A stretch of DNA of 64,000 nt, taken from the sequence record KM190144; one strand, given 5' to 3'. The position numbers and the translations under genes are program-made. The stretch comes from Escherichia phage Av-05. Position 1 is the stretch's first letter, and the number at the start of each line of letters is the position of its first letter. Positions 2,222-60,551 of this stretch are shown here, in pieces. The notes beneath the pieces were generated by a model that saw only the letters and a program-made list of their open reading frames with translations, was not told the DNA's origin and made no database searches.

Positions 2222-3283
2222 TTAATCATTCATCTTATCCCAGCACATTTGTTGCGCTGTCATCAAAACATCGGCAGCAAAGTTAAGATCTGTTGTCTTC
2301 GGTAAATGCGTGTTCTTGTACAGAGTGTTACGAATATAATCATCCTTCTCTTCTGCCCAAGCCAAGAGCTTCTCCAAAGACCATGCACCATTCCTGATTG
2401 CAAGAAGCTCCTGAGCATCAGGTCTTTTTACTAAGACTTTACCTTCTGCTAAGATCTCCTCAGCCATACGCATCAATCTTACCAAATGGAGGGCATGTTT
2501 GCAATCGTACCCGTACTTTTCTTCTAACTCATGCCGGACCGGATTTCTGTTTTCAACCCATGCCCAGTAGTTCTTATGCTTTTCCTTCGCTTGTTTATGG
2601 TCATCTGCCAGATATTTAACGATTAAAATTGGCTTACGTTTCTTATCCTCGTCAGAGAACTGCTCGTATGGAACTTTACGAATAGAACCATCAGAGTTAA
2701 ACAAACCAGCGTTGTCATGTGTACCAATCACACCATAGATATTATCACCCATCGGCAAAAAGACACACAACTTATTAAGGTCATCCAGCATTTTCTGGAA
2801 GTCTTTATGTTTTGTAAGATTATCATCCATCCACGAGTGTGTCAAGCGCATGAACTCTTTTTGTGTTGGTTGCTCTTTAGGTTGCGGGTTATTAATCCAT
2901 TTATTATGGCCTTTGATACGCTTAAGTTGCGCCATCGCGTACCCAGAAAATGTAAAAGCAACTTTGCTTGATAGAAGTTTTGGCGCTTGCTCGCGTAGGT
3001 ACTCGTAAACATCTGAAGTTTGCAGAATGTCACCTCTATCAACAAACATAAGCTCGATAATGTTTGGGTTCATATCAACGAACAGCTTCATATAGTTTGT
3101 TAGCTCATACAGCTTACCATCCTCTTCATCAATAAGAGTCATCTCCCTGTCAACGAAAAATGGGGTAAGAATGCTTTTAGGCTCTGCACAATAAATTCCG
3201 CGAATATCCACATCGGATGTTGGCAAGTTAGTTCCATAGGCAATACTGCCGGAGTAACAACGCATTAGTTCTAGTTTCTTCAT
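2222..3283 (-). CDS. Pol-beta superfamily nucleotidyltransferase
   Basis: N-terminal GSIAYGTNLPTSDVDIRG (GS...hG[ST]...SDxD minimal NTase motif); 353 aa. Confidence 0.5.
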   Translation of the reverse strand: MKKLELMRCYSGSIAYGTNLPTSDVDIRGIYCAEPKSILTPFFVDREMTLIDEEDGKLYELTNYMKLFVDMNPNIIELMFVDRGDILQTSDVYEYLREQAPKLLSSKVAFTFSGYAMAQLKRIKGHNKWINNPQPKEQPTQKEFMRLTHSWMDDNLTKHKDFQKMLDDLNKLCVFLPMGDNIYGVIGTHDNAGLFNSDGSIRKVPYEQFSDEDKKRKPILIVKYLADDHKQAKEKHKNYWAWVENRNPVRHELEEKYGYDCKHALHLVRLMRMAEEILAEGKVLVKRPDAQELLAIRNGAWSLEKLLAWAEEKDDYIRNTLYKNTHLPKTTDLNFAADVLMTAQQMCWDKMND

Positions 3284-4053: not shown

Positions 4054-4551
4054 CTACTCACCTTTTAGCTTAAAACTTTTCAATGTTTTGATAAAGTCTT
4101 TCTCCGCTGGTGTGTAAGTGTGTACGAAACCTGTCTCTTCGCAGGTGTAGGTATCATTAACCTCCATTGCGTGTGGAGGGATAAATGCACCATCAGGAAC
4201 AGACTTATATTCCGGGTTGTAGATAAATTCCGGCAGCACAACAGCTACAGCAGTCATTGCCCCATTCAAGGCTTTCTTTTCTTCACGCCACCAAGCCACA
4301 GGGTAGGTTTGTAAAGACATTGCCTGATCAAGAAAATCTTCAAGCACGGACTGATAACCACCATTCAAAACAATAATGGTCTTATCTTCTTCTTTCCAGC
4401 ATTTCAGCCAATGGTGTGCAGTGATCTGCTCTGGTGTATATGCTTCACCACTATGCAAAACCATAAGCTCTGCAATGGCGTGTGCTGATTGGATACCTGC
4501 ATGGATACCGCAGATATACTGGTTAACAATACAATACATTCTTGTTTTCAT
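4054..4551 (-). CDS. PTH2-like (peptidyl-tRNA hydrolase 2 family) domain protein
   Basis: GIHAGIQSAHAIA and W..W...DKTIIVLNG resemble PTH2 core motifs (GKGKxAAQCSHAA; KVVLK); by-eye only. Confidence 0.35.
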   Translation of the reverse strand: MKTRMYCIVNQYICGIHAGIQSAHAIAELMVLHSGEAYTPEQITAHHWLKCWKEEDKTIIVLNGGYQSVLEDFLDQAMSLQTYPVAWWREEKKALNGAMTAVAVVLPEFIYNPEYKSVPDGAFIPPHAMEVNDTYTCEETGFVHTYTPAEKDFIKTLKSFKLKGE

Positions 4552-4766
4552 TTTTGTTTCTTCCTCAAAATTATCCGTTCAGGACTGAAAAATTCTTTCA
4601 AACACAGGAAGATGGCTAATGCGCCACCCAACCACCAAAAAGGTATCAACAGCAAAGCAGGTATTAAGTCCTCTCCTGTGATACAATCCTGTGTTTTATA
4701 GGTCATGGTAAGAAATACACCTGCTGCTACTATCCCAGCAACCACATACAAGATCAGTTCAATCAT
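4548..4766 (-). CDS. Small membrane protein
   Basis: 72 aa, two hydrophobic helices. Confidence 0.4.
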   Translation of the reverse strand: MIELILYVVAGIVAAGVFLTMTYKTQDCITGEDLIPALLLIPFWWLGGALAIFLCLKEFFSPERIILRKKQK

Positions 4767-5079
4767 TATCCCGTTTCTCCAGAAACGCTTTCACCGCAAG
4801 AGCCGCAGCGTAAATTGCCACAAGACAAATACAAAATGTGAAAATAATAGGTAAAACCATTACCGCAAACATCATAAACAGTGGTCCTGCAACAGTAACG
4901 AATGCTGTTCCAAGCAACAATAGAAATACCACATATTTATCTGCCGTCTCATCCACCTTCTTAAGATACACACCTAAACACACAGAAGACAACAGGAATG
5001 ACAGAATGGACAGCAATAGATACCAATTATCAATAAAGATGATAATTGGACCAGCAACATTTTCTAGCCACCACATCAT
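4759..5079 (-). CDS. Membrane protein
   Basis: 106 aa, strongly hydrophobic. Confidence 0.4.
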   Translation of the reverse strand: MMWWLENVAGPIIIFIDNWYLLLSILSFLLSSVCLGVYLKKVDETADKYVVFLLLLGTAFVTVAGPLFMMFAVMVLPIIFTFCICLVAIYAAALAVKAFLEKRDND

Positions 5080-5093
5080 ATATACTTACCTCT

Positions 5094-6350
5094 TTAGAAT
5101 AACATATCTCTGCTGATTGCTTTACGAATAGCATCAATACGGGCTACTCGCACAGCCTCACCAATCTCTTTACCCTTCTTACCTTTTTCCAGAAGGGGTT
5201 TTGTTATAGCTTTAGAATCAACTTTTGTCATAGCGTCGTAGGCTTCCAACAAAATATGACCCTGAGGATAAGGTTTATGTCTAAAATCACCACCTCTCCC
5301 TTTAGCATCACAATAACACGCATCTGCAAGTGTGTAAACCTTTATTTTCTGATCAGCTTGTCCAGCAGCTTCAAATATTTTCATGATGCTTTTTGGTTTC
5401 AAACCGTTGTTACCATCTTTGGGGGAGATGGCGTGCACTTTTGTGTGATTTTCCGCAACATATTTTGCCGTGTCACGATAGATATTATAAATCTTCAACC
5501 TTTCACACAAGGATTGGATAACATCTACACCAGCTTTTTCATGACCATGAAGATTACCATTGTCCTTATGAGTCACAGCTTTGCCAAAATCATGGCACAG
5601 CACAGCAAACTTGGTCAGTGGATCAGCTCCTAATTCATCAGCAACCCGTAACGCTAGAATTGTATGGGTGTAAGCATCCCCTTCTGGGTGATGTTCTTTA
5701 GGTTGTTGCACACCACGTAGGGCTTCCAGTTCAGGGAGTTCGCCAATACGTCCCATATTGACAGCAAAAGATCTGAAATAACCACTCTTTAAGGCTTTCA
5801 ACATTTCCTTCCATTTACGCTCGGCGCTTATTTCTGCCAAAGAGTGTCGGTTGTCATAAGCCAGTTTAAAAGTTTCTGGATGGATATGCCATTCTTCCCC
5901 AAGCTGGGCTTTAAATCTAAACAGGCGTAGAATACGTAATGGATCTTCAATAAATGCCTGTGATGTATGACGTAATGTTTTAAGTCCTAAGTCAACCTGA
6001 CCACCAAAAGGATCTATAATTTCACCACTCTCAACATCCATCGCCATGGAATTGATGGTTAGGTCTCTACGTGCCAAATCCTCTTCCAGAGTTACATCTG
6101 GACTAAAGCATACCTCAAATCCTTTATGGCCTTCACCTGTTTTTCTTTCTGTGCGTGCAAGAGCGTACTCTTCTCTTGTTTCTGGGTGAAGATAAACTGG
6201 AAAAGATGCGCCAACTTGTGTGAACCCTCTTTTCAACATCTCTTCATGCGTAGCACCAACAACCACATAATCACGGTCTGATATTTCACGACCTAACAAT
6301 TTATCTCTTACTGCGCCACCTACCAAGTATACCTTCATTTCTTCGCCCAC
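5094..6350 (-). CDS. cca: tRNA nucleotidyltransferase (CCA-adding enzyme) with HD domain
   Basis: MKVYLVGGAVRDKLLG...DRD head motif, RRDLTINS, HD motif HHPEGDAYTHT...CHDFGK; probable ATG at 6338 (track GTG 6350). Confidence 0.8.
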   Translation of the reverse strand: MGEEMKVYLVGGAVRDKLLGREISDRDYVVVGATHEEMLKRGFTQVGASFPVYLHPETREEYALARTERKTGEGHKGFEVCFSPDVTLEEDLARRDLTINSMAMDVESGEIIDPFGGQVDLGLKTLRHTSQAFIEDPLRILRLFRFKAQLGEEWHIHPETFKLAYDNRHSLAEISAERKWKEMLKALKSGYFRSFAVNMGRIGELPELEALRGVQQPKEHHPEGDAYTHTILALRVADELGADPLTKFAVLCHDFGKAVTHKDNGNLHGHEKAGVDVIQSLCERLKIYNIYRDTAKYVAENHTKVHAISPKDGNNGLKPKSIMKIFEAAGQADQKIKVYTLADACYCDAKGRGGDFRHKPYPQGHILLEAYDAMTKVDSKAITKPLLEKGKKGKEIGEAVRVARIDAIRKAISRDMLF

Positions 6351-9762: not shown

Positions 9763-11013
9763 ATGACAGCAACAACAGGTGTTGGTGGTTTAATTTATGG
9801 TCGTGCATTGGTTGATCAGAGGACAGGAAAGAAAATAAATTTTGATGAACTGGGCGGCGGGAATATTCCAGAAGACATAACAGATCTTATTGCATCTAAA
9901 GCCCCAATAGAAAGCCCTTCATTTACAGGAAACCCCCAAGCACCAACACCGTTGGATGATGCTATTGGAAAGGAAATAGCTAATGTAGAATATGTGAGGG
10001 GTTTAATTGCAAAATTGGCTGACTCAGCGCCTGAAACATTAGATACTCTCAATGAATTAGCGAAGGCATTAGGTGATGACCCTAACTTTGCGACAACCAT
10101 AACTAACGCTCTTGCTGGTAAACAACCATTGAGTGAAATACTGACATCTTTGTCAGGATTGATTACTGCCGGAAATAAACTAGCTTATTTCAGTGACAAA
10201 AACGTAATGGCTTTGGCAAATCTCTCCGCTGTTGGTCGAGTTATTATAGGGCAAGACTCAAAAACTGGGGTTCTTGATTATCTGGGGATAAAAACCGCCG
10301 CTACAAAAGATGTACAAAACGATATCTATGATGCCACCGATGGGGTAGTATCTTTGCCTGGTGCATTTGGTTTTGGGGCGTTTATCCCTGCCGAGAAAGA
10401 AGTTGTTTTTCAAGAGAAGAATGGGCCAGAGGAATGGGTTTCTTGGTTGAGAAGTGCACAACCTGGTCGTTACCTTGTTCGCCAAGATTTACCTTCAGGT
10501 GGTATACGTATTATTGAAGGGATCACATTTAGAGGTATGGTTGAGGTATTGTCCCTATTTCCAGCGGAGAGTGCGGAACAGGCATCTAAAAATAACAAAT
10601 ATGCTTATTTTTATGGTATAAATGGGGAGTTATACTCTTATCGCTTACTGACTATTTTTGCCAGTGGTGACTGGGTGAATATAAAAGGACAATTCTCTTC
10701 TTTACAGTCTACGGTAGACAATTCATGGGGGAGTCCTGATGTTGGAGGAATAATGTTAGGAGTGTATCTTGGCGCTTCGGACACTGATTCAAACAGAAAA
10801 CTTGTTCGTGGTCAGACTATCCCAGGATCCCGCATAGGGTGTATAACTCTTTACAGCAATGTTTCCGCAACAGGTGCATATCAAAGTACACCAGTTTCTG
10901 TTACACACAGTAATGAAACACAGAGAGGCACGTTTGTAGCCTTATCTGGCTCACCAAGCAACAGCGGTGGTACAGCCACAGGTTACATAGGTCTTTTTAT
11001 GAGGATTGCATAA
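9763..11013 (+). CDS. Tail fibre protein
   Basis: SPSFTGNPQAPTP tail-fibre anchor motif; AAGGAG RBS; N-terminus MTATTGVGGLIYGRALVD. Confidence 0.6.
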   Translation: MTATTGVGGLIYGRALVDQRTGKKINFDELGGGNIPEDITDLIASKAPIESPSFTGNPQAPTPLDDAIGKEIANVEYVRGLIAKLADSAPETLDTLNELAKALGDDPNFATTITNALAGKQPLSEILTSLSGLITAGNKLAYFSDKNVMALANLSAVGRVIIGQDSKTGVLDYLGIKTAATKDVQNDIYDATDGVVSLPGAFGFGAFIPAEKEVVFQEKNGPEEWVSWLRSAQPGRYLVRQDLPSGGIRIIEGITFRGMVEVLSLFPAESAEQASKNNKYAYFYGINGELYSYRLLTIFASGDWVNIKGQFSSLQSTVDNSWGSPDVGGIMLGVYLGASDTDSNRKLVRGQTIPGSRIGCITLYSNVSATGAYQSTPVSVTHSNETQRGTFVALSGSPSNSGGTATGYIGLFMRIA

Positions 11014-11582
11014 TGCTGGATATTAAAGATATTAAGTCCCCGCAGTATCTTCTTAATGGTGACGTTGATTGCCTCGTCCTTTTTGAGGGTTTCTCTGATT
11101 ATCTCCCATACACCGCTTCCAGTAACGACTGTAGCGAAACAGGAAAGGCAGTTTGGGATTCCTTACAATCTGGTAATTTTGGGGAGATTGCCCCGTATGT
11201 AGTAAACCCTCAATTTATCGAGGCATTAAAGCAACAGATGTTATCAGAAATAAAAGAGTGGAGAAAACTGGAAGAAAGCTCTACGGCTATTGTTTCTTAT
11301 AATGGTGCAAGGTATGATGTTGATAATGCAACCCTTGGTCGTATTTATCCAGTATTATTAGCACAAAAAGCATCCCCAGCCAGACAAGCTGTGGTTTGGA
11401 GAGATGTTGATAACAAACCTGTAGAGATGAGTAGCTCTGAATTTGAAAATCTTGTTGTAGCTATGTCTTCCGAGTTGGCAACTAAGAATGATTCAATATA
11501 CATCAAGCAACGAGAAATGAAAGATCAAGTGCTTTCAGCCTCTACGATTGAGGAATTACAAAGGATAAAAATTGGGTGGTAG
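11013..11582 (+). CDS. Putative tail fibre assembly/accessory protein
   Basis: Start overlaps fibre stop (ATGA); position between fibre genes. Confidence 0.3.
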   Translation: MLDIKDIKSPQYLLNGDVDCLVLFEGFSDYLPYTASSNDCSETGKAVWDSLQSGNFGEIAPYVVNPQFIEALKQQMLSEIKEWRKLEESSTAIVSYNGARYDVDNATLGRIYPVLLAQKASPARQAVVWRDVDNKPVEMSSSEFENLVVAMSSELATKNDSIYIKQREMKDQVLSASTIEELQRIKIGW

Positions 11583-27513: not shown

Positions 27514-29577
27514 ATGACAGAGGCTATTTTCACAGCCAGAAGAGAAGATGACTCTGTAGCTGTTAGCTTTGACTATGAAACAATATCAAACACAGCTATT
27601 GCTGGAAGAGATTATACACCCAAAGTAGGTACGGCAACAATTCCTAAAGGGGAAAAGTCTGTACAGATACCTGTGGAGATAAAACAACATCCTAAAAACT
27701 CATTACCAAGAGAATTTACCTTGAAAATGAGTAATCCGTCTTTTGGTGCAAGGCTAGACAGGCTGGCTTCCAGATGTGTTATTAGCACCAAGGAGGATAT
27801 GTCTGAGTTGGGGTGGGGAACAAAAGAAGAGAAAATGTTTCTACCTAAATATTGGACAATTGATTCTCAGCCCACAGAAAGTTGCTCTATAATATCTAAT
27901 GGTAATATACTTACAGCTTATATGACTAATAGAACTGTAAGCGGTTTAGCAGGGGTTATTTGGAGCACAAAAGATAAGTATGATCATAAAGGGATCTCTT
28001 TTCAAGATCACACAGATCTTCGAAACGCTAAACTGTGGTTCGATATAGAGTTGGGCGACGGAATGCCTGATTTTAATAATGAGAAATTGACCCCGACATT
28101 AACTCTTAAACTTTTAGATGGGGCGACCCATTATATCCCTCTGTACGCTTATGCTGAAAATATCGGTGAGGATTATAAAAGAGCCACAATCAAACTTGAT
28201 TTTTCAAATTTAAAATCCGGCCCTGATGTGAACGTGCCAGTGGATACCTCTCAAGTGGATCAGTTTTTCTTTTCTATGATATCTGAGAAGTATGCAGAAG
28301 GAGAAGATGTTGTCCCTAAAGAAAATCAGAACCTTATGTTGAAAATAACTCTTAAAGAGCCTGATACAGGCTATACAATGATGAGAGTTAATAATTTGAC
28401 AATTCCTGCACATGATGTGCGTATGTGTACATCCTATGATGATATGTATAACCTGACACCTGAACGAGTGGTGGACAACTGCTTGAAACTTGGGTACAGG
28501 GATATGATAAACCACTATAATGGTATGTCGCATTATTACGAGTTCTCTTGGGAAAGCTCCGCATGGAAACTGAACAAAGATGTCCCTGTCAATAATGCAA
28601 CCCTACAATGGATGAATAACTATTTCGCACTGACACGAGCAAATGGTTATAAGGTTATCAATTCTATTAGTTTTGAGTTGATGAGTACTGTATGTCCGGC
28701 AGAATGGGTGCAGCATGATTGGAATGATGCATTAGCTGAAACAGGATACACACCACCAAGTTGGGTATTATCTCCTAATATTAATGAGGGTATGCAATAT
28801 ATCCAAAGTGTGATAAATAAAATAGCAGCCACATGCGAACAAGCTAACCAGGTTGTTATCATTCAGATAGGGGAGCCTTGGTGGTGGTATAATACTGCTA
28901 CAAATTTACCTTGTGTGTATGATTATACTACAAAAGCGCGTTTTAATGAAGAGACTGGATTGTATGCTCAAGACATGGGGACAATTTATGACTTTAAGAC
29001 CGGAACACCCTATGATGAGTATGTAGATTTTCTAAGACAGTGCTTAGGGGAGCGAGTGGTAAAATTCGGTGCTGATCTTAAAAAATCTTATCCTAATGCA
29101 AAAATAACACTTTTACCGTTTTTACCATCCATTATTGGTAATGGTATTATGGAAAAGATAAATTTCCCTAGTGGTAGTTATACACCTGAGAATTTTGATC
29201 TCTATTGCTCCGAGTGCTATGACTGGTTACTCCAAGGGAAAATGGAAAAATCATTCCAAGCCATCACCATTCCGCGAGATGTCTTAAAATTTAAAGAAGA
29301 TAAGATACATTATCTGGCAGGATTTGTTCCAGACGAAGGGCTAGCACCATTATACGGATTTGACCCTAATTCTAATTATAGAGAATATCTTTGGAAAATG
29401 ATTATAGGGAACATTGTCCTTAATGAGTTTAAGTTTCCAGGTATTTATCAATACATATGGGCGTATCCACAAGTAATGCATGATTCTATAACAGTGCACA
29501 ACTCTCAATCCGCAGTCTTTCATATGGGGCATACAGCATTGAAAGGGTATTTAAAAGATACCCCACCAGAAGTTTAA
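27514..29577 (+). CDS. Calx-beta domain tail protein (putative receptor-binding or glycan-interacting)
   Basis: N-terminal AVSFDYETISNTAIAGRDYTPKVGTATIPKGEKSVQIPVEI fits Calx-beta pattern; 687 aa W/Y-rich. Confidence 0.4.
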   Translation: MTEAIFTARREDDSVAVSFDYETISNTAIAGRDYTPKVGTATIPKGEKSVQIPVEIKQHPKNSLPREFTLKMSNPSFGARLDRLASRCVISTKEDMSELGWGTKEEKMFLPKYWTIDSQPTESCSIISNGNILTAYMTNRTVSGLAGVIWSTKDKYDHKGISFQDHTDLRNAKLWFDIELGDGMPDFNNEKLTPTLTLKLLDGATHYIPLYAYAENIGEDYKRATIKLDFSNLKSGPDVNVPVDTSQVDQFFFSMISEKYAEGEDVVPKENQNLMLKITLKEPDTGYTMMRVNNLTIPAHDVRMCTSYDDMYNLTPERVVDNCLKLGYRDMINHYNGMSHYYEFSWESSAWKLNKDVPVNNATLQWMNNYFALTRANGYKVINSISFELMSTVCPAEWVQHDWNDALAETGYTPPSWVLSPNINEGMQYIQSVINKIAATCEQANQVVIIQIGEPWWWYNTATNLPCVYDYTTKARFNEETGLYAQDMGTIYDFKTGTPYDEYVDFLRQCLGERVVKFGADLKKSYPNAKITLLPFLPSIIGNGIMEKINFPSGSYTPENFDLYCSECYDWLLQGKMEKSFQAITIPRDVLKFKEDKIHYLAGFVPDEGLAPLYGFDPNSNYREYLWKMIIGNIVLNEFKFPGIYQYIWAYPQVMHDSITVHNSQSAVFHMGHTALKGYLKDTPPEV

Positions 29578-29592
29578 GAAGGAGATACTTTT

Positions 29593-30663
29593 ATGGCTAT
29601 ACCAAGTATACCAATCGAGATTTGGGCAGCGGGAGATGTAATTCTCCCTAATACTCACGGGGAGAACAAAATAAGACCTATTGACGACCTTTGGTTAAAA
29701 GGTTGGGATATGGGAGAAAAACCAGCTTGTGAAGAGTTTAACTATGTTCTTCATATGATGACAAGTTGGATAAAATATGTTACAGGGGATCAAATTCCTG
29801 AATTAGATACAAGATTTTTAAGAAGAAGTGAAAATCTGTCTGATTTAGCGGATAAGGAAACATCCAGAGTCAACCTTGATGTGTGGAGCAGATCAGAGGC
29901 CGACAACCGTTACGTGAATGTAACGGGAGATACAATGACAGGAGCTTTGTCATTGCCGAGATTGAATTTTCAACCTTCTGAGACAGATACTGCGTATATC
30001 ACAACTACAAATCCGGCTTCTGACTGGACGTACTGGGATTTTGTTCTTGGAGATAATCCAGGAACAGCAGGGACAAACGGTGTAGATTCTATACGTTTCC
30101 GATTCTCTCCTTCAGGTAACTCTGGGATGTTCACTATGATGGAGCTTAATGCTATTAGCTCCTCAGCGGCTTTGTGTAAAGTAACAGGAAATGTTGTTGC
30201 CACAGGCACTGTACAAGGAACAAATGTTAATGGCACAAATGCAACATTCACCACAACAAGAACATCCTCTTTGACGGCTACAGGGCAAATTCAAGGTCAA
30301 ACTGTTGTAGCAACAAGCTCATTAACAACACCATATGCAAGGGTTAATGGGGAAGCGAATGTAAATTCACTGGTTGTAAATAATAACTCTGCAAGGGTTG
30401 CGGGGAGAAATATCGTAAGATCTGTTAATGGTGTAGGTGCTGACGGGAATGGTAATGTTAACTTACCAACAGGAAGTGTTCAGCAAATAAGACTTGGTAA
30501 TCGTTTCTCTGCGGGGGTTGTTGAGTCTACGTTTTATCCTGGACATGTAATGACTGGCTGGGCATTTGGTAATAAAAAGGAATTGAGAGGTGGTACGTAT
30601 TACACTGCTCCTTTGCAATATCTTGTGAATGGTCAATGGGTAACAGTAACAAATTTAAACTAA
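29593..30663 (+). CDS. Tail fibre protein
   Basis: T/S/G/N/V-rich beta-repeat region (TGNVVATGTVQGTNVNGTNATFTTTRTSSLTATGQIQGQTVVATSSLTT). Confidence 0.5.
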   Translation: MAIPSIPIEIWAAGDVILPNTHGENKIRPIDDLWLKGWDMGEKPACEEFNYVLHMMTSWIKYVTGDQIPELDTRFLRRSENLSDLADKETSRVNLDVWSRSEADNRYVNVTGDTMTGALSLPRLNFQPSETDTAYITTTNPASDWTYWDFVLGDNPGTAGTNGVDSIRFRFSPSGNSGMFTMMELNAISSSAALCKVTGNVVATGTVQGTNVNGTNATFTTTRTSSLTATGQIQGQTVVATSSLTTPYARVNGEANVNSLVVNNNSARVAGRNIVRSVNGVGADGNGNVNLPTGSVQQIRLGNRFSAGVVESTFYPGHVMTGWAFGNKKELRGGTYYTAPLQYLVNGQWVTVTNLN

Positions 30664-30666
30664 GGG

Positions 30667-31218
30667 GTGCATATGTACAAAATCTATGGTAATTTTCAGC
30701 CTTACACACCTGAAAGAACAGAGTATAATTCGGCCTTCATAGACACAGGGGCAGGTTTCCTTAAAGACAGTGATGGTAGAGATTGGTATGAATTATCAAA
30801 AGAACTAGCTGATAACAAAGCGGAAAACCAAAAATTTTTGCTTCTGACTTCGGATGATATAGTCCTCTGTGTCTCACAAGACCCAACCGCTTATTTTCCT
30901 TATGGAATGAAAATAGTAGTTATTGAGAATCTTACTGTAAACTTAGACCCTAAACTCGGGCATATAAAATTTACAGATGGAGAATTTTTTGATTATAACA
31001 AAGAAGCGGTAGAACAAGCTCAATCAATTATAGAAACAGAAATGATGTGGGCTTCTAATCAAATCTCTACCTTGGAGGATATGATCTCTATGGGATTGGG
31101 TACAGAGAGTAGAAAAAAATATCTGGAAAAATTAAAAGAGTATCGCATAAAACTGTTTTCGTTAGACCCTGAAGAAGATATGAATATTTCTTTACCAGAC
31201 AGACCTTCTAAAAAATAA
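30667..31218 (+). CDS. Tail fibre assembly protein (Tfa-like chaperone)
   Basis: C-terminus LKEYRIKLFSLDPEEDMNISLPDRP resembles Tfa C-terminal signature; follows a fibre gene. Confidence 0.45.
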   Translation: MHMYKIYGNFQPYTPERTEYNSAFIDTGAGFLKDSDGRDWYELSKELADNKAENQKFLLLTSDDIVLCVSQDPTAYFPYGMKIVVIENLTVNLDPKLGHIKFTDGEFFDYNKEAVEQAQSIIETEMMWASNQISTLEDMISMGLGTESRKKYLEKLKEYRIKLFSLDPEEDMNISLPDRPSKK

Positions 31219-31229
31219 GGAGACAAGGA

Positions 31230-31544
31230 ATGTCTATTGACCTATTTGCTATCTTAAAAGCCGTATGGGGTGTATTGACGTTTTTCTTAGTTGGTGTTCT
31301 GAAGTTAACATACTCAGACTATAAAAAGACACAGCAACGTCTTGATGAACTTGATAGGGACATCATAAGAATTAAGGCAGAGATGGTCACTAAAGAGAAA
31401 CTTGATGAGATTCTTGATAAAAAACTGAAAGCTGTCCGCGATGATGTTTCAGATTTTAGAAAAGACTTAAAAGAGGATGTGAGCAGTTTGAGAGTTGATC
31501 TTATAGACCAGCTTAAAATTCTTATAGAGAGTCAAATGAAATGA
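31230..31544 (+). CDS. Membrane-anchored coiled-coil protein
   Basis: N-terminal TM (LFAILKAVWGVLTFFLVGVL) then heptad-rich charged segment. Confidence 0.4.
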   Translation: MSIDLFAILKAVWGVLTFFLVGVLKLTYSDYKKTQQRLDELDRDIIRIKAEMVTKEKLDEILDKKLKAVRDDVSDFRKDLKEDVSSLRVDLIDQLKILIESQMK

Positions 31545-32014
31545 TAAGTTCTGCACTGTACTTTATATGCTTTGCAGTGCTACTTCTTGATAATGACAAA
31601 GGGATCCGAGCCATGTCAGTATTTGGCATGGTTCATATCGTGGCAGAGAATATACTGTACTGGTGGTTCTGTTCCCATATCTACGCATTTGACTTGTCAC
31701 TCTACCTAACCTTTTGTTGGTTCTTGGATATATCTCTGATTTTCTTTACTGCATGTGCTTTGACAGGATGGAGAAAAAAGCTAATGCTTACACTATCTCT
31801 TCCTGTTCTGTTTTGCCAAATTTTAGTTATGCAGTTCCCATTTATTTTACCAATCGCATTAGGCTTCACGATAAATTCATCATATCCAACATTTATGGAA
31901 GTTCTTTTATTATGCGCAGCATACAAAAGCGGCACAATAAAAGAATTGCTTGAGACTTCTGTTGTTGTTGGTTTCATAATTATAGCCAGAATTGTTCCTG
32001 GAGTAAATTATTGA
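31541..32014 (+). CDS. Polytopic membrane protein
   Basis: 157 aa with about four hydrophobic helices; ATGA-coupled to previous gene. Confidence 0.4.
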   Translation: MISSALYFICFAVLLLDNDKGIRAMSVFGMVHIVAENILYWWFCSHIYAFDLSLYLTFCWFLDISLIFFTACALTGWRKKLMLTLSLPVLFCQILVMQFPFILPIALGFTINSSYPTFMEVLLLCAAYKSGTIKELLETSVVVGFIIIARIVPGVNY

Positions 32015-32029
32015 GGATTCTAATGTATT

Positions 32030-32293
32030 ATGCTAAAATCAATATTGAAATTTTTAAAAGACCTTGTCAGATCCCCAGTAAATCCAGAGAAGGCCTCTCA
32101 CACAAAATTTTGGAGTAATATCGGCTTGGCTGCAATGACAGCAGTTTTTTTAGATTGGGGTTTCAAAGGCACATTGACGGAGTGGTATATGTGGGTGTAT
32201 GCCCCCACAGTGGCTGCTCCACAGTTAATAAGTAAGTTAATATCTCTACGTTGGGGTGTAGAAGCACAACGTAGGGAAGAATCAGACCAATAA
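32030..32293 (+). CDS. Small single-TM membrane protein
   Basis: 87 aa, central hydrophobic helix NIGLAAMTAVFLDWGF. Confidence 0.4.
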   Translation: MLKSILKFLKDLVRSPVNPEKASHTKFWSNIGLAAMTAVFLDWGFKGTLTEWYMWVYAPTVAAPQLISKLISLRWGVEAQRREESDQ

Positions 32294-32303: not shown

Positions 32304-34058
32304 GTGGCAGACATGACTAAATTTGAACAGGCGGTCGATCAGGTTGTAGAAGATTCTGAACGCCTTCATAAAGTTGTCAATGGGGCAGCTACTGAAACTG
32401 TAGTTACAGAGGATGGCAGTCTGATACCTACAGTCAGAAAAGCATTTCTTGACAATTTATTCTTTAAAACACCTCCACTACCGTGGGTTGCTGGACAACA
32501 GGCAACGGTATTTAATCAGTTGTATGCTTATACAGGGGAAAGAGGTGTCCAATGGTGGTATGCACCCGGTGCGACAGAGAGTTCACCTGTAACACTACCT
32601 TCTAATCCAGTCAACAATGTTAACTGGAGATTATACAACGATTCAGAATCTATGTCTCAGCTATTTGCGCCTATTGACAGCCCTATCTTTACAGGGAACC
32701 CTCAAGCACCAACACCATCAGCGGATAGTAACAGTACAACTCTGGCAACAACACAATTCGTTACCAGAGCTATTGCTACCGCTTTGGCTGGAATTGCGGG
32801 TGGAAATGGTACATTCGCAGATCTTACTGTAACAGGTTTAGCTAGTCTTAATACGCTTTCTGTTGGCGGTGTATCAACATTTAATGGGCCTGTTAATGCT
32901 GACAACCAAACAGGAAAATTCCAGAATCTTATCTTAACAAAAGATAATTCAAGCCTATCTTTTGCCTACAGTGATGATTCTAACCCGACGTTTATAAAAA
33001 CAAGGCTTGAAGCATACTCAGCACAGACCCATCAGTTACATACAGATATCATCATAAACGGTGTGCCAGTAGCAGACAATACAACAATGTCTTTCACAGG
33101 TCTTGGTAATAATACCTTCGACTATGTTTATATTACAGGCAACTCTAAAAAAGACCCATCTGAAGCTCGTCTCAAAGTTTCTGGGATGACAGAACTTGAA
33201 AACTTAAAGATCACAGGTACTGTAACAGGACTTTCTTTTTCTGTCAATGGGGAAGACATCTCGCCTAATTCTGTAACAACGGCACAAGGGGTTACTGTAG
33301 GTGGTGATTTACAAGTCAATGGTAACACCAATCTCAACAGTACAACATGTGAGAGCTTAGAAGTTACTAACAACCTTGTTGTTAATGGACAAACCAGCCT
33401 CAAGGATTTCTCCTCTACAACTGGTAATGTCACAGGGCTATTAACTTTAGGGGAGGGATTCACTGCGACTGGTGACGGGTCTGTAGGTGGTGATCTAACT
33501 GTCAACGGAACTTCAACCCTTGGTAAGATAATATCTGATGGTGATGTGACTTTAAATAGATCTTCTGGCACAACAACAGTAAACAATTTGGTTGTTAAGG
33601 GGACTGTATCTGGTATTACGTTTGATTTGACAGGACAAAACGTAAACGTAGCATCTCTTTCTGCTCAAAGCAGTGTAACGACAAATCAGTTATTTGTTAA
33701 CGGCCAGGCACAACTTTCTTCCACCAATGTAAGTTTCCTAACTTTACAATCGGAAGAGGTTGACGATCCAACAGCAACATGGACACCAAGCGGCACATCC
33801 AACATTTATAATATCACAGTGAATAAAAATCTGACAATCGGAGCATGGCCTGATCCACAGCAACCTTTCTCCGCTATGATTTATCTGACGCAGGATGCCA
33901 CAGGTGGACACAGTGTAACTCTGGATCCTAATTATGTTGTCCTTAACAGTGAAACTGTTAATACGGCAGCAAATTCAGTTACCATCCTTCAATTAACCTT
34001 TAATGGTGTTGAAGATGGGGTTGTTGACACCATTATTGTCCGTAGACCACAACCATAA
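32304..34058 (+). CDS. Tail fibre protein
   Basis: SPIFTGNPQAPTPSADSNSTTLATTQFV anchor motif; repeated NGxTxL/VxG beta-repeats. Confidence 0.6.
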   Translation: MADMTKFEQAVDQVVEDSERLHKVVNGAATETVVTEDGSLIPTVRKAFLDNLFFKTPPLPWVAGQQATVFNQLYAYTGERGVQWWYAPGATESSPVTLPSNPVNNVNWRLYNDSESMSQLFAPIDSPIFTGNPQAPTPSADSNSTTLATTQFVTRAIATALAGIAGGNGTFADLTVTGLASLNTLSVGGVSTFNGPVNADNQTGKFQNLILTKDNSSLSFAYSDDSNPTFIKTRLEAYSAQTHQLHTDIIINGVPVADNTTMSFTGLGNNTFDYVYITGNSKKDPSEARLKVSGMTELENLKITGTVTGLSFSVNGEDISPNSVTTAQGVTVGGDLQVNGNTNLNSTTCESLEVTNNLVVNGQTSLKDFSSTTGNVTGLLTLGEGFTATGDGSVGGDLTVNGTSTLGKIISDGDVTLNRSSGTTTVNNLVVKGTVSGITFDLTGQNVNVASLSAQSSVTTNQLFVNGQAQLSSTNVSFLTLQSEEVDDPTATWTPSGTSNIYNITVNKNLTIGAWPDPQQPFSAMIYLTQDATGGHSVTLDPNYVVLNSETVNTAANSVTILQLTFNGVEDGVVDTIIVRRPQP

Positions 34059-34064: not shown

Positions 34065-34090
34065 AGGCCACAGCAGTGGCCTTTGTTTTA
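34065..34090 (+). terminator. Rho-independent terminator
   Basis: AGGCCAC-AGCA-GTGGCCT hairpin then TTGTTTTA. Confidence 0.6.
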
Positions 34091-34099
34091 GGAGGATTA

Positions 34100-36043
34100 A
34101 TGTATCCAATCCCTTGTTTTTATATCATAATTTCCAATAACCCTCTAGCCAACTCCATTTCCTTAACCTCCCTCGGTACGTGTCTTAAAGGAGGCAAAGC
34201 ACAATTAATATGGTCTGTTGTGCCAGAAGGTGCAGACTTGCATGATATAACATTTACACCAGACAAACCGACAATTGTATCTGTTGATCCTACGGGGCTA
34301 GTATCTTTTCTTGAAGATGGTGATTTTATCATCACAATGTCTGCAAAGACTGGCAAAGGAGATGAAGAAAAGACCTTAACAGCACAAATCAATGGGCATG
34401 TTGACACATTACGCATTGATGTTGATCCTATAGGCAGCAGAAGCATTAGTGATAGATTCTGGTTTGTCTACAAAGGCGACCCGTCTTTTGACCCAGGCAA
34501 TCCGAATCCGAATATGATTGGCTTTAACATCTCCCCAGCAGAAGTTATGGAGGAGGATGACTTTTATGTCACCGCAGTTTCTGAAACACCTGATATATTA
34601 AGTCTGGCTCCTAGTGGTATCATTACATGTGTTAGTAAAGGTGTTGGGCATTGTGGCATGAAAGGAACCTATAAAGATGTGACAGTAACGACGCTTACCG
34701 ATGTATATGTGGATATAGCACCAGCACTTATAAATCCGACTGCTGTAGCCAACAGTTATGGTGACGTTAAGATAGCGTGGGATGTTCAATTTCCCTCCTC
34801 GGATGATATTTATACCGTAGAGGTTTATGACCCTAAAATGCCAGATGCTGTGTGGAGTAAGAAAACCAAAGACACATTCGTATTCTTTGATGTTACAGAA
34901 TCAGTGCCTATCTTTGGATTCGCCCCTACATATCTTGATGTGGTCATCAAAGGATCAAATCCAGAAACACAACCTATAAGTCCTGATAGGAATATAACTG
35001 TTGACGACTCTTTTGTTAAAGAGGTGCTTGTTTTTGCTGGCGGTGATAACGCAGCAGCGCATTTTAACTCTTTTTCTGGTAGGGATAAAACAACCCAAAG
35101 TGCGACCACAGCACGTAATGAGTATGCTCTCAGCAAAGGGTTTTACCCAGCAGAAGTATTACCAATCAATGCCGCATTCATTACATCTTGTGCAGAAGCA
35201 CAGGCAAACTCCTCTACAGGGTTAGCCACAAATTACTGGTATGACGTTAGTTCCTCCACAGCAGGTCCGTGTCTAACACAGTTCCTTGCGAAGGTTAAAC
35301 CTTATAAGGATAAAATTAAGGCTGTTTTCTGGTCGTTAGGGGAACAAGATGCCATGGTAGCAGCAGCAAAACAAGAGGGAAAACATAGCGATGATGCTCG
35401 TTTTCAGACTGCTATGACCGCCATCTTTGAAAATATCCGATCTGTTATCACAAATCCTGAAGCCAAGATTGTATTGCAGACACTTGGCAGATGCTTTGAT
35501 GATGATGTGGAAGTAGGTGGTGTTGAGTGGTATCGTTATAGAAATATTCAACAACAGTTAGTGGTAGATTCCAAGGGTGGAGTTATAATTGGCTCTTGGG
35601 TTGATGGCGCTGAACACTACGGCAATTATGTTGTTTCAGGGGCAGGGGGTGGTTTAAGAATACACTACCGACCAACAATTTATAAGAATGCCGCAATATC
35701 CTTGGCTAACATGGAGGACTTGTCGAGCACACCTCCTGCTTGGGTGGATATGAAAGTTCCCATGGGAGGAAAGGCAGTAAGGCAAGCAAACCAAGATATT
35801 CTTTTATCATGGGATACCAGAGACTACAGCAAGTTCTCTCTTTTTAACTTTGATGTCCTGACAGGGGCTGTTATATCCCAACAAACATTGACCACCAATA
35901 GTTACACATTTACCTACGCAGATCAAGTAAAACAGTACGGGTATGCTGCGGGTACAGTTTTGTTTGGTGTTGCATATGTTCAAACAACCAGTAAAGGTGA
36001 TATTACATCTCCGTTGGCGAAATTCAATATTAATGTAGCGTGA
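34100..36043 (+). CDS. Tail fibre/spike protein with Ig-like and SGNH/SASA-like esterase domains (putative)
   Basis: GGAGG RBS 4 nt before ATG 34100 (track GTG 34076 is inside terminator hairpin); VLVFAGGDNA and FWSLGEQDA resemble SASA/SGNH esterase motifs. Confidence 0.4.
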   Translation: MYPIPCFYIIISNNPLANSISLTSLGTCLKGGKAQLIWSVVPEGADLHDITFTPDKPTIVSVDPTGLVSFLEDGDFIITMSAKTGKGDEEKTLTAQINGHVDTLRIDVDPIGSRSISDRFWFVYKGDPSFDPGNPNPNMIGFNISPAEVMEEDDFYVTAVSETPDILSLAPSGIITCVSKGVGHCGMKGTYKDVTVTTLTDVYVDIAPALINPTAVANSYGDVKIAWDVQFPSSDDIYTVEVYDPKMPDAVWSKKTKDTFVFFDVTESVPIFGFAPTYLDVVIKGSNPETQPISPDRNITVDDSFVKEVLVFAGGDNAAAHFNSFSGRDKTTQSATTARNEYALSKGFYPAEVLPINAAFITSCAEAQANSSTGLATNYWYDVSSSTAGPCLTQFLAKVKPYKDKIKAVFWSLGEQDAMVAAAKQEGKHSDDARFQTAMTAIFENIRSVITNPEAKIVLQTLGRCFDDDVEVGGVEWYRYRNIQQQLVVDSKGGVIIGSWVDGAEHYGNYVVSGAGGGLRIHYRPTIYKNAAISLANMEDLSSTPPAWVDMKVPMGGKAVRQANQDILLSWDTRDYSKFSLFNFDVLTGAVISQQTLTTNSYTFTYADQVKQYGYAAGTVLFGVAYVQTTSKGDITSPLAKFNINVA

Positions 36044-36052
36044 TAGCAAAAT

Positions 36053-36077
36053 AAAAGGGAGCTAAAAGCTCCCTTTT
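36053..36077. terminator. Bidirectional Rho-independent terminator between convergent blocks
   Basis: GGGAGC-TAAAA-GCTCCC hairpin flanked by AAAA and TTTT. Confidence 0.6.
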
Positions 36078-36096
36078 ATATTAACAAATGCTACTT

Positions 36097-45461: not shown

Positions 45462-46100
45462 TTACTCTGATATAGGGTCTGTTTTTGATCTTCTTTTCTG
45501 GACTTTCTTGGGTCTTCCTGTGATATGTGACCATGAGTATCCATTATTTAAAGAAGATATTGTATTTCTGGAAACTCCGAATAGTTCCGCAATAGCTTTG
45601 TGTGTTATCCCACAATCAATAAGCCGTACAATCTCTAAAACTTTCTCCTTTGTAAGGACAGATAAATGATAATCATCACCAAATTTTTGGATTCTCCCCA
45701 TACTATAAGCCACTGTATTGTTATGGCTATAGGTACACCACTCAAGATTTTCAACTCTATTATTATGTCTGTTACCATCTATGTGGTTTATAATTGGAAC
45801 TCCTAGCACAGTTTTTCTGCATTCTTTCTGCAATTCTGGAGAAGGAGGCTCTTTAAAAGCCTCCGCTACAAGTCTATGGACTGAAAAACTTTTCCCTGAA
45901 TCTTTACCCCTTTTGTACAAGCACACGCTCGGATAGCATTGTGGAGATAAATTTTCACTTTTAGTTTTTAAATATTTCCACATTCCTGATTTAAAAGATC
46001 TTACATTTCCATAATTACTTACTTGATAATCAGGATACCCTACAATATCCTTCCAAATTTCCTCTACTTCATCAGTGGGAATCTGCCCATGTGTATCCAC
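45462..46100 (-). CDS. Free-standing HNH homing endonuclease (NUMOD4-like N-terminus)
   Basis: GYPDYQVSNYGNVRS motif and NHIDGNRHNNRVENLEW HNH motif; GTG start overlaps 3' end of polymerase exon 3. Confidence 0.65.
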   Translation of the reverse strand: MDTHGQIPTDEVEEIWKDIVGYPDYQVSNYGNVRSFKSGMWKYLKTKSENLSPQCYPSVCLYKRGKDSGKSFSVHRLVAEAFKEPPSPELQKECRKTVLGVPIINHIDGNRHNNRVENLEWCTYSHNNTVAYSMGRIQKFGDDYHLSVLTKEKVLEIVRLIDCGITHKAIAELFGVSRNTISSLNNGYSWSHITGRPKKVQKRRSKTDPISE

Positions 46101-46371: not shown

Positions 46372-47214
46372 CACTAGTTCAAGGAGTTCGCTACTCTCCC
46401 CCGCACCGTTACGTGCATAGCCACAAGATTTCTCCTGTGGGTCAGACTATATCATAACCCTTTTTCAAGGGTTCCTCCCGTTTGGACCGCGCTTGCTGGC
46501 CTACTCTACTCGCTTCTTCACATCAGATGAAGCTGATGCTATGCTTTCGATAGTCGTTGAACGTCACTTACCAAGTATAGTCTTTAGAGATATGCACCCA
46601 CAATCTCCGTTGTTTAATTCCTTTTACGGATGGGTAGGGGTATCCGAGATCTCTAATCTCGCATTGCCTTAGCCCTGACTGTAGCAATTCACAAATCTCT
46701 CTCACATCTTTTTCTGTGAGAATGGCATTCGCATTGTTTTCACCAATAGGTATAACACGTAATCCTGTATCGTAAGCATGTTTTATATTGCTGCCATGTG
46801 TCCCCCACTCAAGATTCCACGCTGCGTTATTAAGTTTGTTTCCATCTTTATGATTAACGCTGGTGAATCTTTCTGGATCTGGATTAGGCACAAAACATTC
46901 TGCCACCATCCGATGTATGGCTTTCGTACAGGACTTACCGTCTATCCTTATAATTGTACACAGATATCCCCTCCCATTATCAAATACCTGCAAGGGAAGT
47001 TTATCTCTTTTTGAAAGAGGCGTGGAACCATCTTCAAAAACTGTATACCCATGGTAATCTTTTGCTTTTACCATTTTACTATACCTCTTTAAGTTTTCGC
47101 TGCGGATTGGCATATTGTCCTTATAACACAATACATTATAAGAATCAACTTAGCTTTCCCGACAATTAGAGAGGTTTTCGACATGCATTACTGCATGAAG
47201 CCACAATGTTATTT
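46372..47214 (-). mobile_element. Group-I-intron-like insertion 2 in DNA polymerase gene, with HNH ORF
   Basis: Splits motif C; minus strand has R-like GTTCAACGACTA and S-like ATGATATAGTC elements; 5' exon ends U, insertion ends G. Confidence 0.55.
46568..47131 (-). CDS. Intron-encoded HNH homing endonuclease
   Basis: VNHKDGNKLNNAAWNLEWGTHGSN HNH motif; 187 aa inside insertion 2. Confidence 0.65.
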   Translation of the reverse strand: MCYKDNMPIRSENLKRYSKMVKAKDYHGYTVFEDGSTPLSKRDKLPLQVFDNGRGYLCTIIRIDGKSCTKAIHRMVAECFVPNPDPERFTSVNHKDGNKLNNAAWNLEWGTHGSNIKHAYDTGLRVIPIGENNANAILTEKDVREICELLQSGLRQCEIRDLGYPYPSVKGIKQRRLWVHISKDYTW

Positions 47215-47547: not shown

Positions 47548-48281
47548 CATATTGTTCAACATGGCTCGCTACACCATGCCCGTCCTTTTAGGAACTGCTA
47601 CATATTTCTATGCAGATCAGACTATATCTTCATCCTTTTCAGGATGCCCACCGCTTCGGCAGTCTGAAAGACTGGAGGTTTCCCTCACCGCTTGGCCCTA
47701 CGCCTTTCGGCTAGTCGTTGAAGTTTCGAATGCTTCCCAACATTTATGTTCTATTTGATGGCATTTTTTACAAAGTAATTCAAAATTACTTATTTCGTTA
47801 TTCGTCCTGTCATGGTCAATATGATGAACGCACCATTCATCTTTACCTGCATAAAGAAGATCTTTATTACATCTATTACAGTATCTTCTCTGTTCCTTTA
47901 TGACAGGGGATAACTTACGAAACATCGATATGCCATTTTTATAAAATTTGGACAATTTCCCACGAGGCTGCCCACCACCTTTTCCTATGCCAACTCTGTC
48001 AAGCCTATTTTCTCTTTCGGCCTTTCTGCGTCTATATTCTCTGGTTTTTATCTTTGAATATTCTCTTCTACAACCTTCAGAGAGACATACTTTTTGATTT
48101 TTACCAGTTTTAACACATTGTTCACCGCAGATTATACAACAAAATGTGCCCATATTCTCCCTCCTTTTGTAAGAGGGAAGCATTCGCTTACCTGCTGATT
48201 ATCTTCGACATAACTCGGTCAGATTTCCCAGCAATTCAATGGGTGCACCTTACAAATTACTTTGTAAGGGGGCTATCATTA
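47548..48281 (-). mobile_element. Group-I-intron-like insertion 1 in DNA polymerase gene, with HNH ORF
   Basis: Splits motif B region; R-like CTTCAACGACTA and S-like GAAGATATAGTC on minus strand; TAATGATAG stops in all frames right after exon 1. Confidence 0.55.
47698..48183 (-). CDS. Intron-encoded HNH endonuclease (Cys-rich zinc-finger N-terminus)
   Basis: CVHHIDHDRTNNEISNFELLCKKCHQIEH HNH motif; GGAGGGAG RBS. Confidence 0.65.
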   Translation of the reverse strand: MLPSYKRRENMGTFCCIICGEQCVKTGKNQKVCLSEGCRREYSKIKTREYRRRKAERENRLDRVGIGKGGGQPRGKLSKFYKNGISMFRKLSPVIKEQRRYCNRCNKDLLYAGKDEWCVHHIDHDRTNNEISNFELLCKKCHQIEHKCWEAFETSTTSRKA

Positions 48282-59996: not shown

Positions 59997-60515
59997 TTAT
60001 GCGTCAGGATGCTTGTAAAAAATATGATTCCCAACCTTCACTGTTCTCACCATAACTTTTGTCCAAGATGGTCTAACAGTAGTTGCATGATAGTACGTTG
60101 CTGATTTTGTGTAGTCAAGAGCTTTGTATAAACTTTTGTGGTCTTTATGCAATCTCATCAAGATTTTAGCATAAAATTTAGCCCTCAACCATCTATCCTT
60201 TTCATAAACTTTAAAGGATTGCCCACCGAATGTCCAAGAGAATTGCCCTCGCTGATAAACTACTTTCTTGATAGTACGAGGGAAATTTTTGTCATCCTTT
60301 CTGTTCAGCGTGGCAAACGCGACACCCATCATTCCATAATCGCCTTCACCTCTTCCTTCTTTATACATATTACAGGCAAGAATATTAAGCTCTGTATCAT
60401 TCTTCTTGCAAATGTGAAGAACTCTGGGCTTCTTTGCACTTTCTTTGGCTAGAACAGGAGTAATAGACAGAGAAAGTGCACAGCAAACTGCAAATAATAA
60501 AGATCTTATTTTCAA
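59997..60515 (-). CDS. SleB-like cell wall hydrolase (Hydrolase_2 family) with signal peptide
   Basis: LACNMYKEGRGEGDYGMMGVAFATLNR and YQRGQFSW motifs; probable TTG start at 60515 with GGAG RBS gives MKIRSLLFAVCCALSLSITPVLA signal peptide; track ATG 60542 lies in a hairpin. Confidence 0.5.
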   Translation of the reverse strand: MKIRSLLFAVCCALSLSITPVLAKESAKKPRVLHICKKNDTELNILACNMYKEGRGEGDYGMMGVAFATLNRKDDKNFPRTIKKVVYQRGQFSWTFGGQSFKVYEKDRWLRAKFYAKILMRLHKDHKSLYKALDYTKSATYYHATTVRPSWTKVMVRTVKVGNHIFYKHPDA

Positions 60516-60534
60516 AACTAACTCCAGACAAATA

Positions 60535-60551
60535 AGCCCCATGAAGGGGCT
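60535..60551 (-). terminator. Terminator-like hairpin after 60557-60901
   Basis: Minus strand AAGCCCC-TTCAT-GGGGCTT then ATTTGT; weak U-tract. Confidence 0.35.

Follow-up and report, generated by a model that had tools for sequence, protein, structure and literature searches.

A small hairpin membrane protein encoded among the tail fibre genes of Escherichia phage Av-05 is the probable holin of a widespread phage group

We analysed 64,000 nucleotides (nt) of DNA from Escherichia phage Av-05 (sequence record KM190144; this whole stretch is hereafter the window). The phage is a myovirus of the Vequintavirinae, and its fibre region shares ~95% nucleotide identity with those of Escherichia phages 18-1-2 and TH18 (genus Avunavirus). 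An earlier note on this sequence had drawn attention to three small membrane-protein genes lying between a tail fibre gene with its assembly chaperone (Tfa) and the next fibre gene, and had likened them to a lysis cassette of the holin/antiholin or spanin type, or to a superinfection-exclusion set. All three are indeed open reading frames (ORFs) on the + strand, flanked as that note described, and we refer to them and their products as P1, P2 and P3 (Table 1; the unrelated bacteriophage of similar name is always written phage P2). Each product matches a family of the PHROG database over its full length and, judged by these matches, the three are real genes and not chance ORFs. In several records the trio is already annotated as three membrane proteins. 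The subject of this report is what these proteins do, and above all whether P3 is the holin of the phage.

Table 1. Genes and signals of the cassette, its surroundings and the candidate cell-wall hydrolase (positions in the window; aa, amino acids)
Feature	Position	Strand	Details
P1	31230-31544	+	104 aa; ORF, full-length match to phrog_5345 (8.7e-46)
P2	31541-32014	+	157 aa; ORF, full-length match to phrog_7451 (2.2e-72)
P3	32030-32293	+	87 aa; ORF, full-length match to phrog_1322 (1.5e-30)
P1 ribosome-binding site	31217-31222	+	AAGGAG, 7 nt 5' of the ATG
Short fibre gene	29593-30663		Upstream of Tfa; PHROG/Pfam comparison
Tfa, tail-fibre assembly chaperone	30667-31218	+	phrog_136 (5e-41); Caudo_TAP (1.5e-08); conserved upstream neighbour of P1
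Tail fibre gene	32304-34058	+	Directly 3' of P3; phrog_4549 (5.7e-223)
Bidirectional intrinsic terminator-like hairpin	36051-36079	both	13-bp stem, then T run; ends the late fibre operon
SleB-like cell-wall hydrolase	59997-60542	-	phrog_938 (endolysin); Hydrolase_2 (2e-19)

The three genes are closely packed. The P1 stop codon and the P2 start codon overlap in an ATGA, an arrangement that fits the translational coupling claimed in the earlier note, and P2 and P3 lie 15 nt apart, with a GAGGA preceding the P3 start. Within the cassette, the sole terminator-like site is a weak 6-bp stem inside P3, and the first strong terminator that our scan returned on its 3' side is the bidirectional hairpin of Table 1; the PVP-SE1 record has a bidirectional terminator annotated at the corresponding position. 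Because no convincing terminator occurs before this hairpin, we place P1, P2 and P3 inside the late fibre operon.

By tblastn, the cassette set is present in 294 phage records, and P3 is kept in about 300-350. The trio occupies the same place in Seunavirus (genes 44, 43 and 42 of PVP-SE1, and GEC_vB_MG), in Certrevirus (CB7_33, 34 and 35) and in related phages of Cronobacter, Klebsiella, Erwinia, Serratia and Pantoea. Nucleotide similarity to Seunavirus starts exactly at the P1 start codon and fades within the next fibre gene (query positions 1731-3217), limits that make the cassette a conserved island within a variable fibre region. Its make-up differs between groups. In rV5 proper (BASEL phage Bas58), P1 and P3 are retained and a short-fibre gene stands in place of P2, indicating that P2 is dispensable. 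In Phapecoctavirus, P1 follows the fibre chaperone and P3 lies ~4 kb upstream. In the Plateaulakevirus phiA019, a phage of Aeromonas, the order is chaperone, P1-like gene, a polytopic ORF of 146 aa and P3-like gene; the 146-aa protein aligns collinearly, if weakly, with P2 (hhalign E=0.0036), and on this comparison the three-gene cassette exists in Plateaulakevirus too. This P2-type gene is unannotated both in the phiA019 record (locus L006, 5466-5906) and in that of Salmonella phage SPLA5a (locus L001, 6312-6785).

P3 has the build of a small holin. An AlphaFold2 (AF2) model with a predicted local distance difference test score (pLDDT) of 81 consists of an N-terminal amphipathic helix (residues 2-13) followed by a hairpin of two helices (24-46 and 51-86), and by hydropathy a segment spanning roughly residues 26-45 is hydrophobic. 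The first hairpin helix is immediately preceded by the motif SHTKxWSNxG, which takes the form S-H-T-K-x-W-x-N-x-G across the family. The C-terminal 14 residues, RWGVEAQRREESDQ, include 3 basic and 4 acidic ones and make up the charged C-terminal tail typical of holins; the tails of relatives are charged or of low complexity. At least one transmembrane domain (TMD) is indicated by hydropathy, by the AF2 model and, in the PVP-SE1 homologue gp42, by Octopus and Phobius. The earlier note had described P3 as a protein with a single transmembrane (TM) segment; a two-helix hairpin fits the model better, though Octopus and Phobius do call one TMD in the PVP-SE1 protein. The predicted topology places both termini in the cytoplasm (N-in/C-in). 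Some relatives begin with a further TMD, so that the family has two-TMD and three-TMD forms, and both forms occur among known holin classes.

Codon 6 of P3 (within 32030-32047) is TTG, the homologue from phage 4MG has Met at this position (MLKSIMKF…), and the Certrevirus and rV5 homologues start near it. A dual-start arrangement of the holin/antiholin type would be a speculative interpretation of this region.

The strongest indication of what P3 does comes from the genes around its distant relatives. A scan of IMG/VR gave 80 loci, which fell into 32 metagenomic clusters at 75% identity. In 21 of the 32, genes for an inner-membrane and an outer-membrane spanin subunit (i-spanin and o-spanin) start within a few dozen nt of the stop codon of the P3-family gene, with the o-spanin embedded in, overlapping or following the i-spanin; one of the 21 (L066) has a 78-aa ORF between the P3-family gene and the spanin pair. 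The immediate upstream neighbour encodes a peptidoglycan hydrolase in 17 of the 25 clusters that have a sizeable upstream ORF, and these hydrolases come from seven Pfam families (VanY/Peptidase_M15_4, Amidase_2, Phage_lysozyme, Peptidase_M15_3, GH108, GH19 and CHAP). Individual loci illustrate the pattern. Locus L015 reads GH108 endolysin, P3-like gene, i-spanin and o-spanin with a lipobox, and L013, just upstream of Mu gp27, reads Amidase_2 endolysin, 83-aa ORF, P3-like gene and i-spanin-like protein. At L010 the P3-like gene overlaps the i-spanin, which is followed by the o-spanin, and at L017 a probable hydrolase and genes for a TM/coiled-coil protein and a lipoprotein precede a P3-like gene of the three-TMD form. 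Among cultured phages, Ralstonia RS138 has an endolysin (ORF26), a P3-like 'membrane protein' (ORF27) and an Rz-like spanin (ORF28) in succession, and Pseudomonas Bise an M15 peptidase (annotated 'protease family protein'), a P3-like gene, three small genes and the small terminase gene. One family of small membrane proteins placed between interchangeable endolysins and spanins is the classical signature of a holin. Judged by eye and unscored, most of the cassette endolysins have no evident N-terminal membrane anchor, the GH19 protein being a doubtful case. This speaks for a canonical large-hole holin rather than a pinholin; with neighbouring endolysins that look soluble, a pinholin mode is unlikely for P3.

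Two further arrangements of P3-like genes were seen. In the metagenomic lysis cassettes L022 (1146-1484) and L023 (1228-1563), an ORF of 111-112 aa lies just upstream of a P3-like gene and overlaps it; its product resembles XhlA in layout, starting with a coiled coil and having its TMD at the C-terminal end. In T4-like and other large phages (L009, and Stenotrophomonas phage Mendera, L101 23244-23627), the three-TMD form occurs by itself between the genes for DNA polymerase and dUTPase, on the strand opposite to the replication genes. It has its own terminator there, a placement compatible with a separately transcribed and possibly late gene.

P3 is a full-length member of phrog_1322, a family labelled only 'membrane protein', and a search with the P3 profile returned 182 clusters at E<=0.001 among 1.84 billion representative proteins. 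All 74 P3-family members that we examined match phrog_1322, with two unknown families matched by one member each. DUF2644 (PF10841) is matched by 3 of the 74, all distant from P3 (best 6.3e-05), and weak precomputed DUF2644 matches exist for homologues P0159, P0147 and P0028; P3 itself falls below the Pfam threshold for this family and gives no match. Neither phrog_1322 nor DUF2644 has an assigned function in the databases. To exclude profile drift, we built a hidden Markov model (HMM) from 17 lysis-cassette members with no Vequintavirinae sequences among them. This cassette-only HMM scored 61.2 bits (E=1.7e-18) in a full-length alignment with P3; among the 388 ORFs of the window the runner-up reached 7.5 bits, and 1000 shuffled versions of P3 reached at most 7.3 bits. 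By this measure the homology of P3 to the lysis-cassette proteins is robust. A fold search with the P3 model matched unannotated viral proteins only, and by sequence none of P1, P2 and P3 has a relative among solved structures.

P3 is thus homologous to proteins that occupy the holin slot, is encoded in a late operon and has holin-like anatomy, and from this we infer that it forms holes. Our preferred conclusion, held with reasonable though far from complete confidence, is that P3 is the holin of the phage, a small hairpin protein of the inner membrane made late from the fibre operon. The holin part of the holin/antiholin proposal is supported for P3 by its homology to holin-slot proteins; possible antiholin roles of P1 and P2 are suggested only by their conserved linkage to P3. 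Under this scheme, P3 would be made late together with the fibres, insert as an N-in/C-in hairpin and accumulate in the inner membrane until, at a set time, it triggers and permeabilises that membrane. A soluble endolysin would then reach the murein through the P3 lesions, the spanins encoded next to the terminase would finish the outer membrane, and the exported SleB-like hydrolase may add to wall degradation.

Published accounts of these phages describe no established holin. The rV5 paper reports no holin homologue and offers gp129 as a guess; the CB7 paper finds no identifiable holin in Certrevirus, rV5 or PVP-SE1 and proposes CB7_82; the SalP219 and BME3 papers report neither a holin homologue nor a membrane protein near the endolysin; and for Marzo, which is closely related to Mendera, the genome announcement states that no holin or endolysin was found. 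A P3-family gene is present in the records of rV5-type phages, PVP-SE1, CB7, SalP219, Phapecoctavirus/Justusliebigvirus and Mendera. Among about 350 records with such a gene, zero use the name holin for it.

Several observations weigh against a holin role. In the window, as in Vequintavirinae at large, P3 is not adjacent to an endolysin or spanin gene; the linkage is seen only in distant homologues (the IMG/VR clusters, RS138 and Bise), and gene order does not tell a hole-former apart from some other indispensable lysis factor. None of the 74 examined family members matches a PHROG family annotated as holin, and PHROGs files phrog_1322 under 'moron, auxiliary metabolic gene and host takeover'. 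P3 has no significant similarity to T7 gp17.5 (E=0.055-0.09, with a BLASTP E=0.09; hhalign probability 1%) and none to holin Y of phage P2 (E=0.2). Its hydrophobicity is weak: the published predictions give one TMD for PVP-SE1 gp42 (Octopus/Phobius) and none for rV5 gp29, the homologue there, by TMHMM or Phobius, so the second helix of P3 must be regarded as weakly hydrophobic. The Phapecoctavirus records ESCO8 and ESCO25 call the P3 homologue a 'structural protein', on a basis that we could not trace, and we found no experiment on any member of the family. Finally, the association of P1 with the Tfa gene is tighter than that with P3, and the roles suggested for P1 and P2 derive wholly from conserved adjacency.

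A rival reading is that the P3 family belongs to lysis cassettes without making the hole, acting as an antiholin, a releasin-like protein or another modulator while the true holin is encoded elsewhere. Synteny proves lysis linkage only, and Mu provides a precedent in which a small membrane protein of the lysis cassette is a non-holin releasin. Other small TM ORFs do occur in the cassettes (the 83-aa ORF of L013 and the 78-aa ORF of L066), and rV5 gp129 and CB7_82 have been proposed as holins in their own phages. However, the P3-like protein is the sole protein between endolysin and spanin at L015, and it is the only small membrane protein in that interval in RS138 and apparently in Bise (whose sequences were not inspected). 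The neighbouring endolysins look soluble, so that a real hole is required, and the window ORF that resembles gp129 by description is poorly conserved. We therefore think it unlikely, if still worth keeping in mind, that P3 is a lysis protein other than the holin.

That resembling ORF belongs to an overlapping pair on the - strand (4548-5079), which adjoins the gene for a CCA-adding tRNA nucleotidyltransferase (5094-6350) and encodes proteins of 72 aa (4548-4766; two TMDs and a basic tail) and 106 aa (three to four TMDs). The 72-aa protein fits the published description of rV5 gp129 in size and topology, a likeness drawn from the description only. It was found in only 23 records at ~31% identity, and such conservation is a poor fit for an essential function.

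The category given to phrog_1322 speaks for a superinfection-exclusion set, the earlier note's other suggestion, or a host-takeover set, whose membrane proteins would keep competing phages out or alter the envelope in the manner of T4 Imm/Sp, T5 Llp or the cor/lom genes near fibre genes. Genes for membrane proteins of the exclusion type often adjoin receptor-binding genes, and the presence of P2 varies. Against this, the phage is virulent; exclusion functions are usually made early, but the operon that holds these genes is a late one; P3 belongs to the core genes of two subfamilies; and its relatives lie inside lysis cassettes. P3 also shows no similarity to T4 Imm, and we rejected it as an Imm protein on both an hhalign probability of 1% and its position in the late operon, Imm being the product of an early gene. 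An exclusion set is in our judgement improbable, though P1 and P2 might conceivably have such a role.

If P3 is a holin, its closest counterparts in form are the class II holins, phage 21 S68 and T7 gp17.5, with which it shares small size, a two-helix hairpin, a C-terminal tail rich in charge and, probably, the N-in/C-in topology and late expression of the gene. It differs from them in its additional N-terminal amphipathic helix and SHTKxW motif, and no homology to them is detectable; a kinship with gp17.5 through a shared 'LxEW' stretch was not significant on test. The position of the gene has precedents among holins. In T7, the lysozyme gene is far from gene 17.5, and in T4, the holin gene t lies in the late fibre region, directly after the chaperone/adhesin gene 38 and far from the endolysin and spanin genes. 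The location of P3 resembles that of t in being in a late fibre region away from endolysin and spanins, and that of 17.5, which directly follows fibre gene 17 in the T7 record. T4 T itself, at 218 aa, is unlike P3: it has a single TMD, its periplasmic domain is large, and neither its sequence nor its architecture is similar to that of P3; T is regulated by RI and RIII, of which we identified no counterparts here.

P1 has its hydrophobic segment near the N terminus (approximately residues 5-25), followed by a charged helical domain of 78 residues (18 K/R and 19 D/E), in agreement with the earlier description of it as a TM-anchored coiled-coil protein. In every homologue the N-terminal tail is acidic and free of basic residues, and basic residues follow right after the segment (K25, K32, K33 and R37). 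By the positive-inside rule, P1 is predicted to be N-out/C-in, with its coiled coil facing the cytoplasm. This orientation bears on the spanin-type cassette of the earlier note, in which P1 would be the i-spanin, since i-spanins are built in this way, with a coiled coil behind an N-terminal TMD. The acidic tail and basic flank predict a coiled coil on the wrong side of the membrane for that role. Moreover, P1 has no lipoprotein partner (0 of the 3 cassette proteins has a lipobox, and P1 and P3 are without any Cys), its 104 aa are short for an i-spanin, and the Rz/Rz1 spanin pair annotated in relatives lies beside the terminase. A spanin role for P1 is accordingly extremely improbable, and we set the spanin-type cassette aside.

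In overall form P1 is closer to Mu gp25, the releasin: both are about 100 aa long, with a very short N-out tail, an N-terminal TMD, a basic junction and a cytoplasmic charged helical domain, and P1, like gp25, is encoded by a probably late gene linked to lysis genes. Unlike the Mu case, the phage carrying P1 is not transposable, and there is no adjacent endolysin. We rejected homology between the two proteins (hhalign probability 2%; a jackhmmer search from gp25 misses P1). XhlA (PF10779) was likewise rejected, the only match being a weak one on the rV5 homologue (E=0.016, over 20 residues), and P1 carries its TMD at the other end. Pfam DUF2730 (PF10805), the family of gp25, reached no better than E=0.12 in the P1 family, on homologue P0092 only; the label 'DUF2746' carried by one homologue in one source could not be reproduced; and NCBIfam and Pfam otherwise gave only weak coiled-coil noise on P1. 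By analogy, P1 is possibly a holin accessory or lysis regulator.

The distribution of P1 supports another account of it. Its profile finds members in Vequintavirinae, Phapecoctavirus and Plateaulakevirus and nowhere else, in every case immediately behind a fibre-chaperone gene, and the profile search found no member in the lysis cassettes of small phages. P1, and perhaps P2, could then be morphogenesis helpers that are not part of the virion and that tether fibre/Tfa assembly to the inner membrane, leaving P3 as the only lytic protein. The position directly 3' of the chaperone gene in three lineages and the missing cassette members both suit this idea, as does the variable distance between P1 and P3, which may be adjacent, separated by P2 or a fibre gene, or ~4 kb apart as in ESCO25.

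Virion composition is compatible with it as well. Tandem mass spectrometry of CB7 confirmed the flanking products CB7_24-31, 36 and 37 and did not detect CB7_32 (Tfa) or CB7_33-35, so that Tfa is likewise absent from virions; for rV5 gp29 and gp31 there is no mass-spectrometric evidence. The available CB7 and rV5 proteomics do not, then, identify the cassette products as virion components, the outcome that the earlier note had named as contrary to its proposal. Small membrane proteins are hard to detect, and the absence of the trio, which also speaks for the holin reading of P3, is supportive rather than decisive. On the other side, P1, P2 and P3 are contiguous in Vequintavirinae and Plateaulakevirus, and membrane-tethered coiled coils recur beside holins (XhlA, Mu gp25 and the ORFs of L022 and L023). 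Nor do we know of a precedent for a membrane-tethered fibre assembly factor of the P1 form, which counts against such a role. We consider the morphogenesis account unlikely for P1 and P2.

P2 is a polytopic membrane protein, as the earlier note had it; the four helices claimed there agree with the four TMDs that Octopus and Phobius assign to the PVP-SE1 homologue, and differ from the six helices of our AF2 model (pLDDT 85). Within its helices lie the invariant polar residues E36, N37, D51, D63, Q93, Q98 and E120. The model has no meaningful fold match in PDB or BFVD, and PF26221 appears as a precomputed match on P2 homologues, from which we draw no meaning. Phage P2 LysA is a polytopic membrane protein, and its gene is a non-essential member of a lysis cassette that affects lysis timing; it may be a functional analogue of P2. 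As a homologue it was rejected, since no sequence similarity was found (hhalign E=0.42).

From their conserved linkage, our best guess would make P1 and P2 antiholin-like or accessory proteins to the putative holin P3 that adjust the timing of lysis. One can go further and imagine P1, P2 and P3 as a three-part membrane module coupling lysis timing to tail-fibre assembly, in which P3 would be the holin, the tethered coiled coil of P1 would restrain or release it according to the state of late morphogenesis, and P2 would act as a polytopic modulator. Holin regulation of this sort would be unlike the lambda dual-start, T4 RI/RIII and Mu releasin schemes. We mention this module as an outside chance.

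The lysin candidate of the earlier note, 28 kb from the cassette, is a cell-wall hydrolase and probably a secondary one. Its N terminus resembles a cleavable signal peptide (…SLSITPVLA|KE) and not a signal-anchor-release (SAR) sequence, and it has no overlapping small two-TMD ORF, in contrast to the CB7_82/83 arrangement described for Certrevirus. In the literature, the SleB-like protein is treated as a second hydrolase and not as the main endolysin. With ten mid-size ORFs and the cassette hydrolases as queries, we found no second endolysin in the window. The PVP-SE1-type endolysin is described as a modular enzyme.

What is new here is the proposed holin role for a widespread uncharacterised family; holins themselves already comprise many unrelated known families. 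If correct, this assignment would make phrog_1322 a holin family, and with it several hundred sequenced phages would have their full complement of lysis genes. It would also correct the database label 'moron / membrane protein' and supply a concrete gene for the control of lysis timing in rV5-like, PVP-SE1-like, phi92/phAPEC8-like and Mendera-like phages, which are widely used or proposed in biocontrol and therapy. Holin candidates would follow also for many Mu-like and other temperate phages of beta- and gammaproteobacteria in which the gene is now 'hypothetical', and P1 and P2 would become candidates for an undescribed layer of regulation.

Other features of the window deserve brief mention. 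About 20 kb 5' of the cassette, a second pair of fibre-like (9763-11013) and Tfa-like (11013-11582) genes on the + strand has no P1-like gene after it. Closer to the cassette, the + strand ORF at 27514-29577 encodes a protein of 687 aa that is related to chains of PDB 9lc0 and contains Calx-beta, NCTSP_N and 'non-contractile tail sheath' TIM-barrel domains. The tail protein encoded at 34076-36043 (+) has a Big_2 domain, matches SASA (sialate O-acetylesterase-type) esterases weakly and may be a receptor-modifying enzyme. The early region, on the - strand, contains three closely spaced ORFs for HNH homing endonucleases (45462-46100, 46568-47131 and 47698-48183) and, at 62634-63242, a gene for a Macro-domain protein (Pfam 5.4e-05).

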